Shown here piece after piece: positions 3,160 through 11,115 of a DNA stretch of 39,014 nt (within the stretch, counting starts at the first letter, position 1; each line of letters opens with the position of its first letter). The notes below the pieces were generated by a model, which made no database searches, was not told the origin of the DNA, and was given only the letters and a program-made list of their open reading frames with translations. The stretch lies in contig NZ_RAWQ01000078.1 of NCBI RefSeq assembly GCF_003668965.1, positions 1 through 39,014 of the forward strand, read 5' to 3'. The translations under genes were made by a program, and so were the position numbers. This DNA comes from Corallococcus sp. AB030 (GTDB lineage: Bacteria; Myxococcota; Myxococcia; Myxococcales; Myxococcaceae).

Positions 3160-3500
3160 TTGCTGTCATCTTCGAGGTCTGGACACACGAGTCGCATCGG
3201 CAGCGATACCTGGACCTCGCGGCGGAGCTGCGGCCCCTGCTGGCGGACATCGACGGCTTCATCTCCATCGAGCGGTTCCAGAGCCTCAGCACCCCGGGGA
3301 AGATGCTTTCCCTGTCGTACTGGCGCGACGAGGCGGCGGTGGCGGAGTGGCGGCGACAGGAGGCCCACCGTGAGGCCCAGCGCGAAGGCCGAGGAGGCGT
3401 GTTCAGCGACTACCGCCTGCGGGTGGCGCACGTCGTGAGGGATTACGGCTTGAAGGACCGGGCGGCCGTGCCCGCCGACAGTCGCACCGTGCACGACTGA
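3156..3500 (+). CDS. Antibiotic-biosynthesis-monooxygenase (ABM/ActVA-Orf6-like) family protein, translationally coupled to the P450
   Basis: 114 aa with MIAVIFEVWT...LSYWRDEAAVAEWRRQEAHREAQ, a typical ABM ferredoxin-like fold signature. Its ATG overlaps the P450 stop (ATGA). Confidence 0.75.
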   Translation: MIAVIFEVWTHESHRQRYLDLAAELRPLLADIDGFISIERFQSLSTPGKMLSLSYWRDEAAVAEWRRQEAHREAQREGRGGVFSDYRLRVAHVVRDYGLKDRAAVPADSRTVHD

Positions 3501-3583
3501 CGCGGCCGGCGCACGGCGGCTGTCTTCCCGCCCGTCCCTCCCATGCGGGCCATGACTCCCCCACCTTCTTTGGGGGGTGAACG

Positions 3584-3982
3584 ATGAAGCGAGGCCATTG
3601 GAGAGGTGCCTGGGGGCTGGCTGCCGCGCTGCTCGGGCTTCCGGCGGTGGGGCAGATGGAAGGCCCACCCGAGGGTGCGTCGCAATACTCCTGCTTCGAA
3701 GCGGCGCGCCAGGGCAGCTCGGTGAGCGAGAGCATCGCGGCGCAGCTCTGCCAGGGTGCCCGTTCCGACACCCCGGCACGGTGCTTCCTCCGGGTGCAGG
3801 AGAAAGGCTTCCTCGCCGACCCGCAGGCGCTCCAGCTCTGCCAGTACGCCCAGCCCTCGGATGATCCCGCGGCCTGCTTCTTCAAGGCGCGGACCTCCTC
3901 GTTCCTGGACGAGACACAGCTCCTGGAGCTCTGCCGCCCGCCCATCGCGCAGATGCTGAAGATGTGCCCCTACGGTCCGTGA
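3584..3982 (+). CDS. Small secreted cysteine-rich protein with three internal CF...LC repeats
   Basis: Signal peptide MKRGHWRGAWGLAAALLGLPAVG. Repeated motif C-F-x(n)-L-C (CFEAARQ..AQLCQ, CFLRVQ..LQLCQ, CFFKAR..LELCR). RBS-like GGGGGTGAA precedes the ATG. Confidence 0.6.
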   Translation: MKRGHWRGAWGLAAALLGLPAVGQMEGPPEGASQYSCFEAARQGSSVSESIAAQLCQGARSDTPARCFLRVQEKGFLADPQALQLCQYAQPSDDPAACFFKARTSSFLDETQLLELCRPPIAQMLKMCPYGP

Positions 3983-4000
3983 GGCTTCAGGCCGTGGGGC

Positions 4001-6685
4001 TCACCGGGCGCGGAGGAACGCCTTGACGCTCGGGGACTGGAGCTTCTGGGACTCGATGCACAGCCGGATGGACTCCAGGGCCCGGGTGAGCGCGCGCGGT
4101 CCGCCTTCAATCTTGTCCACGCGGGGCGTCAGGAACGTCTCCACCTGCGCCAGGTGGATGTCATCGCAGAGGCTCCCCGTCTGGCCAATCAGCCGACCCA
4201 GCTCATCCGAACGCAGCCGCTGGGTCAGCGCATCGAAGTGCGTCTGATAGAAGTTCCACGCCAGCGACTGCGACTCCGGCAACATCAACGCCATCCGGAG
4301 GATGCTCTGCGAGTCCCGCACATCGAAGTCCGGCGACACCACGAGCCCCAGCGCCCGCCACAACAGCTCCGGGTTCCGGAAGTAGCCCAGCGACATCAGC
4401 AGCCGGGAACGCTCGGTGCGGTCCTGTTCCTTCCTCGCCGCTTCCAGCAGCGCGTCGAACAGCGCCGCATCGCCGTGCGTCGCTGCTCGGGGCAGCGCGG
4501 CACTGAACGCCTCCGGGTCCACCGACTTCCGGTCCGCCAGCCATGCGCGCACCAGGGGCAGCGCCTCCTTCACCAGCCGAGGGTCATCGCCCAGACCACC
4601 GGCCAGCCGGAGGAACAGGGAGCGTGAATCCTTCACGGAGTCGTCCTCGCCCGGCTTCGGCACCCAGCCCATGGCCCGCGCACGCGCCGAGTAGAGCGAG
4701 GCCACCCACGCGCGGAAGCGCTGGCGCTCCTCGGGCGTGAGCTGCTCCAGACGCACGAGTTCCAGCAGCGAGGCACCGCTCTGCACCACGAGCCGGTTCG
4801 TCGATTTCGCGGAAGCAGGCACCGACTTCAGCGCCTCCCCCAGCGGCAGGTCGCCCCGGCTCACCGCCGCATCCACATCCGCCCAGAGCGCCATCTGCTC
4901 CGCGGGAGTGAAGGCGGCGGCCGGAGTCGCGAGCAGCTTCGTCAACTGCTCGCGGGTGTAACCGCTGCGGTAGTAACCCGTGCCGCCCGCGTTGAGCAGC
5001 ACCCACGCCGGGCACTGCTTCGTGGGCAACGCGACCTCCGCGGACGGCCCCTGCAACATCGAGCACACCCGCGACGACTGCGTGCCCGTGCCCACGCGAA
5101 GACACACGGGCACCTGCCATTCCTGCCGCGAGTCCGCCTTGGAGCCCACGGGCAGGTACCGCTCCTGCGACAGCTTCACGGACGGAGCACCGCCCGCCGG
5201 GCACGACAGCTGCGCGGTGATCCGAGGCGCCCCGCTCCGCTCGATGAACCCGCCGAAGGATTGCGCCACCTCCGGCCCCGCCGCCTGGGACAGGTCCGCG
5301 AGGAAGTCCTCCATCGTCGCGACCTTCCACTCGTGCTTGCGGACATAGCCCCGGAGGAAGTCGCGGAAGCGCTCGGGGCCCATCCAGGCCTCGTACATGG
5401 CGATGACGGACGAGCCCTTGTCATACGTCGTCCCGTTGTCGAACGAGCCCACGATGTCGTCATTGCTCTCCACCGGCTTGCGAACGGGCAGCGCCGACGC
5501 CAGCTCATCCGACGCCAGGGCGGAGCGGGTCGCGGACATGGCGCGCTCCTGCTGGTAGTCCCAGGACGGCTCCAGCCGGTCCACGGTCTGCCGGTCCAAC
5601 CACGCGGTGAAGGACTCGTTCAGCCAGATGTCGTTCCACCAGGAGCAGGTGACGACGTCCCCGAACCAGTAGTGGCCCAGCTCATGGTTGGCGATGACCG
5701 CGTACGACTTGCGGCGGGCCAGCGTCTCCTCACCGGGAGGAATGAGCGTGAGCGGCTGCCCGAGTGCGACGATGCCCGGGTGCTCCATGGTGCCCCAGTA
5801 CCGGGGCACGACCGCCACATCGAGCTTCTCGTACGGATAGGGCTGGTCGAAGAAGTCCTCCAGTCCCTTCACGATGCGAGGCGTGATGCTCGCGGCGTAG
5901 CGCGTCTCCGCGCCCCGGCCCTTGGGGACGATGAAGCGCAGCGGCACGTTCGTGCGTCCCACGGTGCCGGCCTCGACGATGTCGAACGGCCCCACCATGA
6001 AGGCCACGAGGTAGCTGGGCATCGGCTTGCTCTCCGCGAAGGTGACGCGCTCCAGTCCGTCCGCCAGCGGCTCGCGCGACACGACGGGATGGTTGGCCAG
6101 CGCCACGTGTCCGGCCTTCACGGTGAAGCGCAGACGCCACGGCACCTTGAAGGTCGGCTCGTCGAAGCACGGGAAGGCGCGGCGCGCGTCGATGGGTTCG
6201 AAGAACGTGTAGAGGTAGGGCTCACCGCCCTCCTCCACCCCGTAGATGCCCTGGCTGCGCTCGCGGTCCACCTTGCCGGTGAAGTCGAGCAGGAGCTGGG
6301 CCTTGCCCACCGGCAGCTCCTCCGGCAGCAGCAATCCCAGACGTCCTTCGGGCGCGGTGACAGGCTTCGCATCGAACGTGCGGCCCGCCACGGTGACACG
6401 AGCACGCGTCACTTCCACGTCCTGCGCATGCAGCCACACCTGGCGCACGGGCTCGCGGACCTCCACGTCGATGGTGACGCTGCCCGGGTACCTGTCCTCC
6501 TAGGGCACGAGCTTCAGATCCAGCGCGTAGTGCACGGGCCGAACGGTGTCCGGCAGCCGCAGCGCGGGGGGCAGGGCCTCCGGCCACGAAACGGAGGGCG
6601 GCGCGGATGCAGTCGGCGCGGCCTCCGGCGCGTGGGCGCAGCGGACGGTCAACACCACCAGGGCGAGGAGTGGGAGCAGTCGCAT
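4001..6685 (-). pseudogene. pepN: Aminopeptidase N (M1 family zinc metallopeptidase) interrupted by a single in-frame TAG at 6500..6502. The N-terminal 61 codons (6503..6685) carry the signal peptide, and the open body runs 4001..6466
   Basis: The body carries the gluzincin motif HELGHYWFGD...WLNESFTAW and the upstream GAMEN-like region. The short upstream ORF in the same frame encodes MRLLPLLALVVLTVRCAHA plus the conserved M1 N-terminal motif VRPVHYALDLKLVP. The single stop sits between LKLVP and EDRYPGSVTIDVEV, the conserved P..F.G.V.I motif. Confidence 0.7.
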
Positions 6686-6846
6686 GGGGCGCAGCGTAGA
6701 CCATGCGCGGGTCGCGCACCGCGCCTACGTCTCGGCTCGCACCCACAGCATTCTTGAAATGTCTCCAATCCGTGAAGCAGTGATTTCAACCCCGCGAGCC
6801 GCTACGGTCCTGATCCCCCCGCATCACCCCCTAGCCGAGGATAAAC

Positions 6847-7161
6847 ATGTTTCGTCGCAGCAGCGTTCTTCCCTCCCTCTTCGTGTCCCTGCTTTTCGTC
6901 GTGGGCTTCGCGTCGTCGGCCAGCGCTGACACCTACCAGACCTATGTGACGCCCACGGCCAATGGCTATCAGATTGGCACGTACCTCCCCAACCAGCCCA
7001 CCGGGAACTTCAGCAGCGCCGCCGACACCGCCCGCCGCTTCTGTCAGGACCAGGGCCACAGCGGCGCGCAAAGCTTCACCACCGCCATCCGTGGCTCCGC
7101 CTTCTCGTTCATCGTGGGTACGAATGGCGTGGGCAACTGGCTGAGCTATCCCCTCATTTGA
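6847..7161 (+). CDS. Secreted repeat-module protein, 5' portion: signal peptide plus module 1 (NGYQIGTYLPNQPTGNFSSAADTARRFCQDQGH...GTNGVGNW). Truncated by the insertion at 7141
   Basis: Signal peptide MFRRSSVLPSLFVSLLFVVGFASSASA. SD GAGGA lies 6 nt before the ATG. The terminal codons LSYPLI* come from the inserted element. Confidence 0.65.
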   Translation: MFRRSSVLPSLFVSLLFVVGFASSASADTYQTYVTPTANGYQIGTYLPNQPTGNFSSAADTARRFCQDQGHSGAQSFTTAIRGSAFSFIVGTNGVGNWLSYPLI

Positions 7162-7247
7162 AGATTCCCCTCGGAGAATGCATGAGCAGCCGAGCGAGCA
7201 AGCTCAGAGGGGAAATCGAAAATGAGGGGATGCTTCAGGGCAACTGG
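7132..7247. mobile_element. MITE-like 98-bp insertion (7141..7238) with ~19-bp imperfect terminal inverted repeats (CTGAGCTATCCCCTCATTT / AAATGAGGGGATGCTTCAG), flanked by 9-bp direct repeats GGCAACTGG (7132..7140 and 7239..7247)
   Basis: Direct reading. The element has lower GC than its flanks. Deleting 7141..7247 (107 nt) joins 6847..7140 in frame to 7248..7577, giving one signal-peptide plus two-module ORF. Confidence 0.6.
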
Positions 7248-7577
7248 GGCACCACCGGCAATTCCAACGTGACCATGCTGGAGACCGTCACCTGCTTCAC
7301 TTCCAACTCGGGCGTCACCTACACGACTCCCGCAGTCAATGGCTATCAGATTGGCACGTACCTCCCCAACCAGCCCACCGGGAACTTCAGCAGCGCCGCC
7401 GATACCGCCCGCCGCTTCTGCCAGGACCAGGGCCACACCGGCGCGAGCAGCTTCACCACCGCCATCCGTGGCTCCGCCTACTCATTCGTCGTGGGCACGA
7501 ACGGCGTGGGCAACTGGGGCACCACCGGCAATTCCAATGTGACCATGCTCGAAACGGTCACCTGCATCACGCAGTAA
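7182..7577 (+). CDS. Secreted repeat-module protein, 3' portion (remaining tail of module 1 plus complete module 2). Lacks a signal peptide as annotated and is probably the distal part of one gene split by the insertion
   Basis: Module 2 (7327..7517) is ~93% identical in DNA to module 1 (6950..7140). The ATG at 7182 is preceded by GGAGA, but the N-terminus lies inside the inserted element. Confidence 0.55.
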   Translation: MSSRASKLRGEIENEGMLQGNWGTTGNSNVTMLETVTCFTSNSGVTYTTPAVNGYQIGTYLPNQPTGNFSSAADTARRFCQDQGHTGASSFTTAIRGSAYSFVVGTNGVGNWGTTGNSNVTMLETVTCITQ

Positions 7578-7589
7578 CCGACAGTCCGG

Positions 7590-7617
7590 GGACCGGGGCT
7601 CCTCGCGGCCCCGGTCC
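7590..7617 (+). terminator. GC-rich hairpin GGACCGGGGC-N8-GCCCCGGTCC downstream of the repeat-module gene
   Basis: 10-bp perfect stem, 13 nt after the stop at 7577. Confidence 0.5.
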
Positions 7618-7669
7618 ACCGGGTGTCTTCCAGATGCACGCGGCGGTGGAGTGGGTCAGGATGCGGCCC

Positions 7670-8491
7670 ATGTCCAACCTCCAAGGCAAGACCCTCTTCA
7701 TCACCGGCGCCAGCCGCGGCATCGGCAAGGCCATCGCGCTGCGCGCGGCCCGCGACGGCGCCAACATCGTCATCGCCGCGAAAACCACGGACCCGCACCC
7801 CAAGCTGCCCGGCACCATCTACACGGCGGCGAAGGAGATTGAAGAGGCCGGCGGCAAGGCCCTCCCCTGCGTGGTGGACATCCGCGACGAGGCGCAGATC
7901 CACGCCGCCGTCGCCAAGGCCGTGGAGACCTTCGGCGGCATCGACATCCTGGTGAACAACGCCAGCGCCATCAGCCTCACCGGCACGCTGGAGACGCCGC
8001 TCAAGCGCTTCGACCTGATGCACGGCATCAACACGCGCGGCACCTTCGCGTGCTCGCAGGCGTGCATCCCGTACCTCAAGAAGTCCTCCAACCCGCACAT
8101 CCTCAACAACTCGCCGCCGCTCAACATGGAGCCGCGCTGGTTCGGCCCCCACGTGGCCTACACCATCGCGAAGTACGGCATGAGCCTGTGCGCGCTGGGC
8201 ATGGCGGAGGAGCTCAAGGACGACGGCATCGCCGTCAACACGCTGTGGCCCCGCACCGTCATCGCCACCGCCGCCGTGCAGAACCTGCTGGGCGGCGACG
8301 ACACCATCAAGGGCAGCCGCACGCCGGAGATCATGGCCGACGCCGCGTACACCATCCTCACCAAGCCCAGCCGCTCCTTCACCGGCAACTTCTGCATCGA
8401 CGATGAAGTGCTGCGCGCCGCCGGCGTCACCAACCTGGACAAGTACCAGTCCGTCCCCGGCGCGGAGCTGCTGCCCGACTTCTTCCTCTAG
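7670..8491 (+). CDS. SDR-family NAD(P)-dependent oxidoreductase (HSDL2-like short-chain dehydrogenase)
   Basis: TGASRGIGKAIA glycine-rich cofactor motif, NNAS, catalytic YxxxK (YTIAKYG). Start taken at MSNLQGKTLFITG; a TTG further upstream at 7634 is possible. Confidence 0.8.
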   Translation: MSNLQGKTLFITGASRGIGKAIALRAARDGANIVIAAKTTDPHPKLPGTIYTAAKEIEEAGGKALPCVVDIRDEAQIHAAVAKAVETFGGIDILVNNASAISLTGTLETPLKRFDLMHGINTRGTFACSQACIPYLKKSSNPHILNNSPPLNMEPRWFGPHVAYTIAKYGMSLCALGMAEELKDDGIAVNTLWPRTVIATAAVQNLLGGDDTIKGSRTPEIMADAAYTILTKPSRSFTGNFCIDDEVLRAAGVTNLDKYQSVPGAELLPDFFL

Positions 8492-8505
8492 CGCGTCTTG
8501 GCCCC

Positions 8506-9426
8506 ATGCCCCCGCGCAAGCTCCAGCGACACCTGGTCTGGCTCGAGTCCTTCACCGCCGCCGTGGAGGCAGGCAGCATCGACGCCGCCGCGGAGCACCT
8601 GGGCGTCGCCCGCTCCGTCGTGAGCGAGCACATCCGCGCCCTGGAGGAAGCGCTCGCGGATGGCGCCGCCCTGCTGGAGCGGGGGCCGGGCCGGCGCCTG
8701 CAACTGTCCGCGCGAGGAGAGCGCCTCTACGCGGGCACCCAGACGCCGCTTCACCAGCTGGACGTGAAGCGGCTGATGGACCTGGCCCGCGTGGAGCCCA
8801 CCCTGCGCCTGGGCCTCAACCCCACGCTGTCCATGTCGCTGCTGGGTGGCATCGCGCAGGACGCCGCCGCCGCCGACCTCAAGCTGGTGGTGGGCTTCGG
8901 CGGCTCGCACGAGCTCATGCGCCAGGTGCAGACGCGGCAGCAGGACCTGGCGCTCGACTTCACACCCCTGCCCCCGCACGAGGGCGTGGACACAGAGTCC
9001 CTGCTGCGCATGTCCTTCGCGGTCATCGCGGGCCCCGACTCCCCGCTCGCGAAGGCGCACGCCTCCCGCCGCACCCTGGACGTGAAGGACCTCCAGGGCC
9101 AGCGCTTCGTGGACTGGCTGCGGGACGACCCCTACGGCGGCGCCAACAGCGCGCGCTTCGCAGCGCACGGCGTGTCCGTCACCGAGGTCGGCCGGGTGGA
9201 GAGCTTCCTCCACCTCTACGAGCTGCTGCGCGCCTACAAGGCCTGCACCATCGCCCCGGACGTACGCCCCACCCAGCCCTTCCCCTCGGACCTCCACGTC
9301 TGGCCCCTGCGCGAACAGGAGCCCCAGGTCGTGGAGGTGGTGGCCGTCTGGCCCTCCGGAGGCCTCAGCCCCGCCGTCCAATCCATCCTTGACGGGCTGC
9401 GTCGCCGCCTGAACAAACGGCGATAA
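8506..9426 (+). CDS. LysR-family transcriptional regulator
   Basis: N-terminal HTH LVWLESFTAAVEAGSIDAAAEHLGVARSVVSEHIRALEEAL followed by a substrate-binding domain. Lies 14 nt after the SDR gene and 93 nt before the hydroxylase gene. Confidence 0.85.
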   Translation: MPPRKLQRHLVWLESFTAAVEAGSIDAAAEHLGVARSVVSEHIRALEEALADGAALLERGPGRRLQLSARGERLYAGTQTPLHQLDVKRLMDLARVEPTLRLGLNPTLSMSLLGGIAQDAAAADLKLVVGFGGSHELMRQVQTRQQDLALDFTPLPPHEGVDTESLLRMSFAVIAGPDSPLAKAHASRRTLDVKDLQGQRFVDWLRDDPYGGANSARFAAHGVSVTEVGRVESFLHLYELLRAYKACTIAPDVRPTQPFPSDLHVWPLREQEPQVVEVVAVWPSGGLSPAVQSILDGLRRRLNKRR

Positions 9427-9519
9427 TCCGACGAAGACGTCGAATTCTGCCGGATTTCCGTCTTGCAGTGGGGTGCGTATTCTTCAGGAGTCCTGCATCT
9501 CCTGAAGGAGCCGCTCGCG

Positions 9520-11115
9520 ATGACGCCCACGGAACGGACCATTGCCCGCCTTCCCGCCCACCTGCGCCGCTACGTGGTGGGCCAGGACTACGCGGCGTAC
9601 ACGCCCAGGGATCAGGCGGTGTGGCGGCACATCCTGGGGCAGCTGCGCGAGCACCTGAGCGACAAGGCGCACCCCGTCTACCTGGAGGGCCTGGAGGCCA
9701 CGGGCATTGGCGCGGAGGCCATCCCCAGCCTGGACGAGATGAACGAGAAGCTGTCCCAGCTGGGCTGGTCCTGCGTGGCGGTGCGCGGCTTCATCCCGCC
9801 GGCCGTCTTCACGGAGCTGCAGGCGCTGGGCGTGCTGGCCATCGCGGCGGACATCCGCACGCACGAGCACATCCAGTACACGCCCGCGCCGGACATCGTC
9901 CATGAGAGCGCGGGCCACGCGCCCATCATCGCGAACGCGCGCTATGCCCAGTACCTCAAGGCCGTGGGGCTGGTGGGCTTCAAGGCCATCGCCAGCGTGG
10001 AGGACCAGGCCGTCTTCGAGGCCATCCGCAACCTCTCCGTGGTGAAGGAGGACCCCACCGCGACGGAGGAGGAGATCGCCCACGCCCAGGCCCGCCTGGA
10101 GGCCGCCAACGCCAGCCACCGCTACATCAGCGAGAGCACCCGCGCGAGCCGCCTGTACTGGTGGACCGCGGAGTACGGACTGATTGGCGACCTGAAGCAC
10201 CCGCGCATCTACGGCGCGGGCCTGCTGTCCAGCATCGGCGAGGCCCGGCACTGCCTGACGTCCGCCGTGCACAAGCTGCCCCTGGGCGTGGCGTGCGCGG
10301 ACACGGACTACGACATCACCCGCATGCAGCCGCAGCTCTTCGTGGCGCGCGACTTCGAGCACCTCTTCGAAGTCCTGTCCGAGTTCGAGTCCACGCTCGC
10401 GTGGAAGCGCGGCGGAGACCTCGGCCTGAACGAGGCGCTGCGCGCGCGCACGGTCAACCACCTGGTGCTCGCGGACGGCCGCGAGGTGACGGGCAAGGTG
10501 GTGGAGCTGCTGCCCGCCGCGAAGGACGTGGCCCCGGGCCTGTCCACCGCGCTGGCCCGGTTGGAGGGCCCCATCCTCACGTCCATGAACGGGCACGCCC
10601 TGGACAAGCCGTTCAGCGGCGCGGCGCTGGTCGCCTTTGGCCAGGGCACCCTGCCGGAGCGCGGGAACTTCACGCTCACGCTCGACAGCGGGCTGGTGCT
10701 GGAGGGCTTCGCGGTGGGCGGCGGAGAAGTGATTGCCCTGCGCGGCACGCTGGCCGGACAAGAGCTGACGCTGCCGTCCATGGCGCGCCTGTACCTGACG
10801 GAGCGGCTGCCGTCCGTGGCGGGCGGCCCCGCCGACCCGGGCACGTGGGACGAGTGGTTCGGGGAGATGGACGCCTTCACCGCGGGCGACGGCGAGGCCC
10901 AGGCGCGCGAGCGCAAGGCGCAGGCCCTGCCCCCGTCGCTGGCCGCCCTCTACACGGAGGTGCGCCGCATCCGCGAGACGGGACAGCTGGCCGCCGAGCG
11001 GCTGGAGCAGATCGCCCGCGCGTCCACGGACTTCCCCACCGACTGGCTCCTGCGCGCCGAGGTCGCGGAGCTGCGCGGCGAGGTGCCCGCGAGGCGCGAG
11101 GCGGCGCAGGCGTAG
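9520..11115 (+). CDS. phhA: Biopterin-dependent aromatic amino acid hydroxylase (phenylalanine 4-monooxygenase-like), long form with a ~270-aa C-terminal extension of unknown function
   Basis: Iron-binding motif YTPAPDIVHESAGHAPII (xPDxxHExxGHxP) and a second His/Glu region. SD AAGGAG lies 11 nt before the ATG. An 8-bp inverted repeat TTCAGGAG/CTCCTGAA overlaps the RBS. Confidence 0.8.
   Translation: MTPTERTIARLPAHLRRYVVGQDYAAYTPRDQAVWRHILGQLREHLSDKAHPVYLEGLEATGIGAEAIPSLDEMNEKLSQLGWSCVAVRGFIPPAVFTELQALGVLAIAADIRTHEHIQYTPAPDIVHESAGHAPIIANARYAQYLKAVGLVGFKAIASVEDQAVFEAIRNLSVVKEDPTATEEEIAHAQARLEAANASHRYISESTRASRLYWWTAEYGLIGDLKHPRIYGAGLLSSIGEARHCLTSAVHKLPLGVACADTDYDITRMQPQLFVARDFEHLFEVLSEFESTLAWKRGGDLGLNEALRARTVNHLVLADGREVTGKVVELLPAAKDVAPGLSTALARLEGPILTSMNGHALDKPFSGAALVAFGQGTLPERGNFTLTLDSGLVLEGFAVGGGEVIALRGTLAGQELTLPSMARLYLTERLPSVAGGPADPGTWDEWFGEMDAFTAGDGEAQARERKAQALPPSLAALYTEVRRIRETGQLAAERLEQIARASTDFPTDWLLRAEVAELRGEVPARREAAQA

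Follow-up and report, generated by a model that had tools for sequence, protein, structure and literature searches.

MIC231 and other MITEs (miniature transposable elements with inverted repeats), derived from IS4-family elements (IS231 of Bacillus cereus), keep only the ends of an insertion sequence (IS) and depend for their mobility on an IS4-family DDE transposase acting in trans. Correia elements (Neisseria), RUP (Streptococcus pneumoniae) and ERIC/IRU sequences are palindromic non-coding elements of ~100-150 bp that occur in tens to hundreds of copies per genome. IS10 has the hotspot consensus NGCTNAGCN, and its transposase shows a preference for acting in cis. Insertion of IS10 produces 9-bp target duplications, and its targets are only loosely conserved (PMC10359306). 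Here we analyse a 98-bp element at positions 7141-7238 of a 39,014-nt stretch of DNA from Corallococcus sp. AB030 (contig NZ_RAWQ01000078.1; hereafter the window), which interrupts a gene for a secreted repeat protein. We find that the element was recently inserted into this gene in some Corallococcus exiguus strains, and that it is very probably a non-autonomous DNA transposon, a MITE, with IS10-type ends (IS4 family). An initial annotation, made from the sequence alone, had proposed a MITE-like insertion splitting a secreted tandem-module gene, which is borne out both by empty sites in sister strains and by homologous copies elsewhere.

Empty and filled alleles of a secreted-protein gene

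The features of the locus are as follows, with positions in the window; loci fetched from other assemblies carry L numbers.

6847-7161, plus strand: open reading frame 1 (ORF1), 104 aa; signal peptide, truncated module 1, six element-encoded residues and TGA
7132-7140, no strand: left copy of the target-site duplication GGCAACTGG; in-frame Gly-Asn-Trp codons of module 1
7141-7238, no strand: the 98-bp element, non-coding and almost fully palindromic; missing at the orthologous site in L001, L012-L018 and L088
7141-7159, plus strand: left terminal inverted repeat CTGAGCTATCCCCTCATTT; nt 1-5 and 8-17 equal the IS10 inside end
7158-7577, plus strand: ORF2, opening within the element; encodes the last 19 aa of module 1 and all of module 2, without signal peptide
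7220-7238, minus strand: right terminal inverted repeat, reverse complement CTGAAGCATCCCCTCATTT
7239-7247, no strand: right copy of the target-site duplication GGCAACTGG
7317-7574, plus strand: module 2, a chimera of ancestral module 2 (5') and module 3 (3'); informative sites 2222...3333 against L001
7509-7517, no strand: a second, unoccupied GGCAACTGG at the equivalent spot in module 2

The two copies of GGCAACTGG form a perfect 9-bp direct repeat with exactly 98 bp between them. This segment has a GC content of 0.53, compared with 0.69 for the window and 0.63 for the surrounding gene, and all coordinates given for this lower-GC segment and its direct repeat in the initial annotation check. 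Imperfect terminal inverted repeats of ~19 bp had also been described; the termini indeed match at 16 of 19 positions, but the inverted symmetry is wider, spanning 41-nt arms that are 73% complementary. Such palindromy is expected from two copies of one transposase-binding end. The element folds into a single hairpin, with a free energy of -52.6 kcal/mol as RNA (z = -7.8) and -26.3 kcal/mol as DNA (z = -5.9), and none of 200 shuffles was as stable in either case. Open frames running through it reach at most 30-32 codons, and a tblastn search with the IS10 transposase found no match in the window.

Orthologous loci from other assemblies were retrieved via the neighbouring SDR protein. The complete C. 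exiguus genome CP183924.1 (L088) contains an uninterrupted two-module gene, with one GGCAACTGG and no element. Positions 1-3294 of L088 correspond to window 3847-7140 at 99.5% identity and positions 3285-6624 to window 7238-10577 at 98.4% identity, and these blocks to the left and right of the insertion overlap on the single GGCAACTGG. L088 is the exact pre-insertion allele. Removal of 107 nt (7141-7247) from the window joins ORF1 and ORF2 into an open 624-nt frame of 207 aa with a signal peptide and two modules, the in-frame fusion that had been predicted. A cluster look-up returned two C. exiguus proteins of 207 aa, one of which, P0157 from CP183924.1, differs at two residues from this virtually repaired product. 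An intact 296-aa three-module gene is present in seven assemblies, with no trace of the element within 5.6-8.8 kb; the three-module locus L001 is short by exactly 107 bp relative to the window, and GGCAACTGG is single-copy at the insertion position in both L088 and L001. An uninterrupted gene at this site was found in eight assemblies of the same species.

Filled alleles are also present in more than one strain. In L019 (GCA_012985235.1), the same site is occupied by an identical 98-bp element, whose flanks align with the window over 5,611 bp, gap-free and at 98.66% identity. The split gene, seen as its 115-aa ORF2 product, is common to three assemblies in the cluster look-up. The element is a presence/absence polymorphism at a C. 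exiguus locus that is otherwise 98-99.5% identical, and in filled alleles a copy of the otherwise single target GGCAACTGG stands on either side of it.

A different view would take the 98 bp as a regulatory hairpin or a conserved spacer separating two genes that have never been one, a view favoured by the very stable hairpin and by the stop codon, GGAG and ATG codons contained within the segment. This is refuted by the empty sites in the eight same-species assemblies; furthermore, other species encode the homologue as a single protein (117, 207-211 or 296 aa) and the same 98 bp occurs at unrelated loci, leaving the spacer with almost no probability. The initial annotation had named such a spacer in all orthologues, with no other copies of the element, as the pattern that would speak against an insertion, and the opposite was found. 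It is also unlikely that the 98 bp are ancestral at this locus and were precisely deleted in all other strains, a scenario disfavoured by the different duplications at other sites of the element.

A second presence/absence polymorphism lies directly beside the insertion. A PKD/Kelch beta-propeller gene of 726-781 aa is located between the repeat-protein and SDR genes in four assemblies (L001, 3892-6496; L014; L017; L018) and is missing in the window (7578-7633), L012, L013, L015, L016, L019 and L088.

A family of copies with IS10-like ends

One genome per species was scanned for two conserved cores of the element, and metagenome and viral contigs were scanned with a one-arm pattern. Homologous 98-bp copies were found in Myxococcus dinghuensis, M. 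qinghaiensis, M. xanthus AM003 and Corallococcus sp. RDP092CA (L006-L009), along with copies in metagenomes (L020, which equals L035; L022, which equals L031; and L045) and in viral contigs of high GC (L053 and L054). A six-frame peptide census revealed a further copy in a prophage-like region of M. virescens (L052). Together, the window and ten others represent 11 distinct sites at unrelated loci. Perfect 9-bp duplications flank the element at seven of the 11 sites and are all different (GGCAACTGG, GTACAGGCC, CGTTCAGGG, ATTGGGGGC, GGGCTTGTC, GGGCGGGAG and CTCGGCGAC); one further site has a duplication matching at 8 of 9 positions, and three are decayed. The probability of two 9-mers being identical by chance is ~4e-6 per site.

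The copies are 78-97% identical overall and form three subfamilies, 78-81% identical to one another, with a length of 98 bp in ten of 11 copies and 99 bp in one. At the termini, nt 1-5 and 8-20 are nearly all invariant or near-invariant across the 11 copies. Copies in different genera reach 95-96% identity, which for non-coding DNA at non-orthologous sites suggests recent movement.

Also inherited, in the 11-copy alignment, is an asymmetric bubble of 5 nt in which GAAGA of one arm faces TCGAT of the other. That length is nearly invariant across subfamilies differing at ~20% of positions suggests that length or phasing is constrained in so short a transposon. Of the 11 copies, three are situated in prophage-like or IMG/VR viral contigs with 67-68% GC (L052:3175-3272, L053:3521-3618 and L054:2225-2322), the L052 copy among Bro-N and phage tail genes, and myxophages may spread the element.

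The conserved hairpin could in principle mean that the element is primarily a gene for a structured small RNA, or a regulatory module acting at the RNA level, with the fold under selection, and 90.7% of cells pair across the 11 copies. This pairing arises by invariance, however: the covariation score was reached by 60 of 500 shuffles and the number of double-change pairs by 89 of 500. Covariation is thus no better than in shuffles, a function of the RNA structure is unsupported, and we consider this idea barely credible. Rfam returned no family match for the element, only sub-threshold generic miRNA-hairpin matches, and a promoter and terminator scan of 6650-7700 found no such sites.

For comparison with the ends of the element, those of IS10 were read from Tn10 on plasmid R100, giving CTGAGAGATCCCCTCATAATTT for the inside end and CTGATGAATCCCCTAATGATTTT for the outside end, against CTGAGCTATCCCCTCATTT for the element. 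Longer reads are CTGAGAGATCCCCTCATAATTTCCCC (IS10 inside end) and CTGATGAATCCCCTAATGATTTTGG (IS10 outside end), and CTGAGCTATCCCCTCATTTGAAGATTCCCC (left end) and CTGAAGCATCCCCTCATTTTCGATTTCCCC (right end, reverse complement) for the element. The termini of the element (CTGAGnnATCCCCTCAT) agree with the inside end of IS10 at 15 of 17 positions, with nt 1-5 and 8-17 identical, and the element starts with CTG and continues with ATCCCC(T) from nt 8, like both the inside and outside ends of IS10. A Shewanella relative of IS10, whose transposase has 50% amino-acid identity, keeps CTGGCGGATCCCCTCATAA, so the motif marks the IS10 group. The element also matches IS10 in the 9-bp length of its target duplication.

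Because of these IS10-like termini and the 9-bp duplications, we infer that both ends would be bound by a DDE transposase of the IS10 group, provided in trans, which would excise the element by cut-and-paste and insert it at 9-bp staggered target cuts. The element has no DDE_Tnp_1 (PF01609) coding capacity, and is therefore a derivative rather than a member IS of the IS10 group. Small size, terminal inverted repeats, target duplications of fixed length that differ in sequence from site to site, and presence/absence polymorphism with an exact empty site, all of which characterise MITEs, are found here.

Several observations weigh against assigning the element to an IS10-type MITE family. Its copy number looks very low, with one copy in the 39-kb window, a single perfect-core match in each of four species-representative genomes and, in the six-frame peptide census, a copy overlapped by one called protein only among 5.8 billion; MITEs usually have many copies per genome. 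With a profile search, neither the window nor any of the other fetched loci yielded a second copy, and blastn of the element against plasmid and phage collections gave no match. No clean duplication is present at L006, L045 and L053, and the eight duplicated targets do not resemble the IS10 hotspot.

A source of transposase is likewise missing from the material covered, as neither an autonomous IS carrying these ends nor an IS10-like transposase turned up in the window, the fetched loci or the matches listed. Searching all fetched loci with the IS10 transposase by tblastn gave no match; Myxococcaceae genomes were not searched directly for transposases. Among the best 120 of 1882 relatives in a database search with the IS10 transposase, the named ones were all gammaproteobacterial, with no myxobacterial partner. 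When viral contigs were scanned for transposases with a profile, only IS10 and its close relatives came up, while end-pattern scans for a partner yielded MITE copies and chance matches only in metagenomes and no partner in viral contigs. Cis-preference of the IS10 transposase would explain why there are few copies; the low copy number fits this and a nearly extinct family equally. An autonomous partner would be a PF01609 (DDE_Tnp_1) gene between inverted CTGAGnnATCCCCTCATTT and flanked by 9-bp duplications.

With no partner transposase found and targets unlike the IS10 hotspot, the element might instead be a mobile palindrome of another class that resembles IS10 by chance, such as a REP/BIME sequence (mobilised by RAYT, Y1), a Correia-like element, or a derivative of another IS family that duplicates 9 bp (IS1, the IS903 group of IS5, or IS256). 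Against this stand the motifs CTG (nt 1-3) and ATCCCCTCAT (nt 8-17), which amount to 13 fixed positions with offsets equal to those in the IS10 inside end; the motifs are also present in the distant IS10 relative, and the 9-bp duplication length is alike. We regard a chance likeness as very unlikely. REP elements are short imperfect palindromes, often clustered, that make no target duplication, and Correia elements duplicate TA. REP/BIME membership was considered and rejected, as 9-bp duplications are present and the copies are solitary.

The terminal core ATCCCCTCATTT was also observed with unrelated interiors, in a Roseiarcus metagenome-assembled genome (MAG; L010:4706-4809) and at L002:4717-4806 and L003:4716-4802 (Deltaproteobacteria MAG), the Roseiarcus element with a perfect 9-bp duplication GGGCGCAGC. 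These three loci share the 12-nt terminus core and were left out of the copy count; we take them as distant relatives or other families. IS10-type miniature elements may exist in several phyla.

Effects of the insertion and history of the module array

ORF1 begins with a Sec-type signal peptide, read from the sequence as residues 1-27 with cleavage at ASA|D. Its module 1 breaks off after ...GVGNW, followed by the element-encoded residues LSYPLI and by the TGA at 7159-7161, so that, as had been noted, the stop of ORF1 lies inside the element. ORF1 consequently lacks the last ~19 residues of module 1, including the second cysteine; a 104-aa homologue is annotated as a gene in L019. ORF2 has possible starts at TTG 7158, ATG 7182 and ATG 7230. 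ATG 7182 is in frame with ORF2 and has a candidate GGAG at 7173-7176, both base-paired within the RNA hairpin, whereas the NCBI annotation starts ORF2 at ATG 7230, giving the 115-aa product. A second product without signal peptide is possible and reinitiation after termination at 7159-7161 is conceivable. Exact-protein look-ups found neither ORF1 of the window nor ORF2 (from ATG 7182) on record.

Module 1 is cut short, and what remains of the protein is leaderless and preceded by a hairpin of high stability; loss of function of the secreted-protein gene is therefore the most likely result of the insertion. Within the gene, the window and L019 show only three differences, all non-synonymous and all in ORF1 (V7D, A38V and F86Y, at window positions 6866, 6959 and 7103). 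These would fit relaxed constraint, although their number is too small to test.

Alternatively, the interruption might be tolerated because expression is rescued, either by translational bypass between the duplicated GGC-AAC-TGG codons or by termination-reinitiation at the GGAG/ATG of the element, giving a functional or a new leaderless protein. The duplicated 9 bp are in frame on both sides of a strong hairpin, and both half-ORFs are still open in three assemblies; open half-ORFs, however, are expected anyway because the insertion is young. In known translational bypass (T4 gene 60, yeast mitochondrial byps), take-off and landing codons are matched, a stop follows directly after take-off and the gap is ~27-55 nt. 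Here, matched GGC AAC TGG codons are present, but the gap is 107 nt and the stop lies six codons downstream of the putative take-off codon, unlike in T4 gene 60. Neither do the exclusively non-synonymous differences between the window and L019 give any sign of purifying selection, and the module needs its second cysteine and export. We therefore hold a rescue to be highly improbable. Equally remote is a regulated outcome of the insertion, in which a ribosome hop would restore the secreted protein or coupled reinitiation would yield a cytoplasmic leaderless module, together with the related idea of a myxophage-spread family that is kept for such an effect.

The array that the element entered has a history of its own. 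The module comprises ~89 aa with two invariant cysteines. Homologues of the repaired protein come from Corallococcus and a few metagenomes only, and all are uninterrupted, with 117 aa for one module, 207-211 aa for two and 296 aa for three. Module number varies from one to three among Corallococcus species, and three is the common state. The protein family is rare and accounts for 16 of 1.84 billion representative clusters; a Pfam search of the repeat protein returned nothing beyond a sub-threshold YecR match, and Foldseek of the module against the PDB gave no significant match.

The two modules of the window had been described as ~93% identical in DNA and recently duplicated. The measured identities are slightly lower, at 91% over 201 nt and 92% over 63 nt in the cores, and 87% over the whole 267-nt units. 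A recent duplication, by contrast, is not supported: most Corallococcus species have three modules, module 2 is chimeric, and strains that lack the element show no less similarity between modules 1 and 2 (89%). Referenced to the three-module locus L001, module 2 corresponds to ancestral module 2 over its first ~150 nt and to module 3 from there on, with the crossover between unit nt 139 and 155, in the FTTAIR region. Judging from this chimeric module, the two-module gene is a 3-to-2 contraction of an old three-module array by unequal recombination and not a new duplication, and the array, variable in module number, both grows and shrinks in this way. Because an intact two-module allele exists (L088), the contraction would have come first and the insertion second, with the element later entering module 1 in one C. 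exiguus lineage.

The adjoining gene for an M1 aminopeptidase (4001-6685, minus strand, 894 codons) has a TAG at codon 62 (window 6500-6502), which is TCG (Ser) in L019, L012 and L013. This TAG is either a nonsense mutation or a sequencing error; if it is real, two neighbouring genes are broken.

Comparison with known systems

A literature search on myxobacterial MITEs and IS10-derived MITEs found nothing relevant in the searchable literature, and the element seems to represent a MITE family, with IS10-type ends and duplications of 9 bp, that had not been described from Myxococcaceae. Disruption of a gene by a miniature transposon is an ordinary, well-known event, and general concepts are unchanged. 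The value of the case lies in a fully documented MITE insertion in Myxococcaceae, with empty allele, filled alleles, target duplication and sister copies, and in a deltaproteobacterial element tied to IS10-type ends. For annotators, the 98-bp signature explains split hypothetical genes in Corallococcus and Myxococcus assemblies, and the locus amounts to a natural knockout polymorphism for a secreted protein with tandem domains that is itself rare.

Among described systems, IS10/Tn10 (IS4 family, IS10 group; labelled ISVsa5-family transposase in RefSeq) resembles the element in the CTG start, ATCCCCTCAT at nt 8-17, the 9-bp duplication and a loose target preference. IS10, however, is 1329 bp long with a transposase gene, compared with 98 bp and no such gene, and is found in Gammaproteobacteria, whereas the element resides in high-GC Myxococcaceae and has arms that are similar over ~41 nt. 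MIC231 is, like the element, a non-autonomous IS4-type derivative, but it is larger, may carry passenger genes, and has IS231-type ends and Firmicutes hosts.

Correia, RUP and ERIC sequences share with the element a palindromic structure, a location in or beside genes, the formation of RNA hairpins and the ability to alter expression. They differ in their duplications (TA for Correia, against 9 bp) and in having many copies per genome, against apparently one or a few, and the element is set apart by its IS10-type ends. Miniature Tn3-type derivatives follow the same concept and are likewise recognised by terminal repeats and duplication length; unlike the element, they have 38-bp ends and 5-bp duplications and move by replicative transposition.
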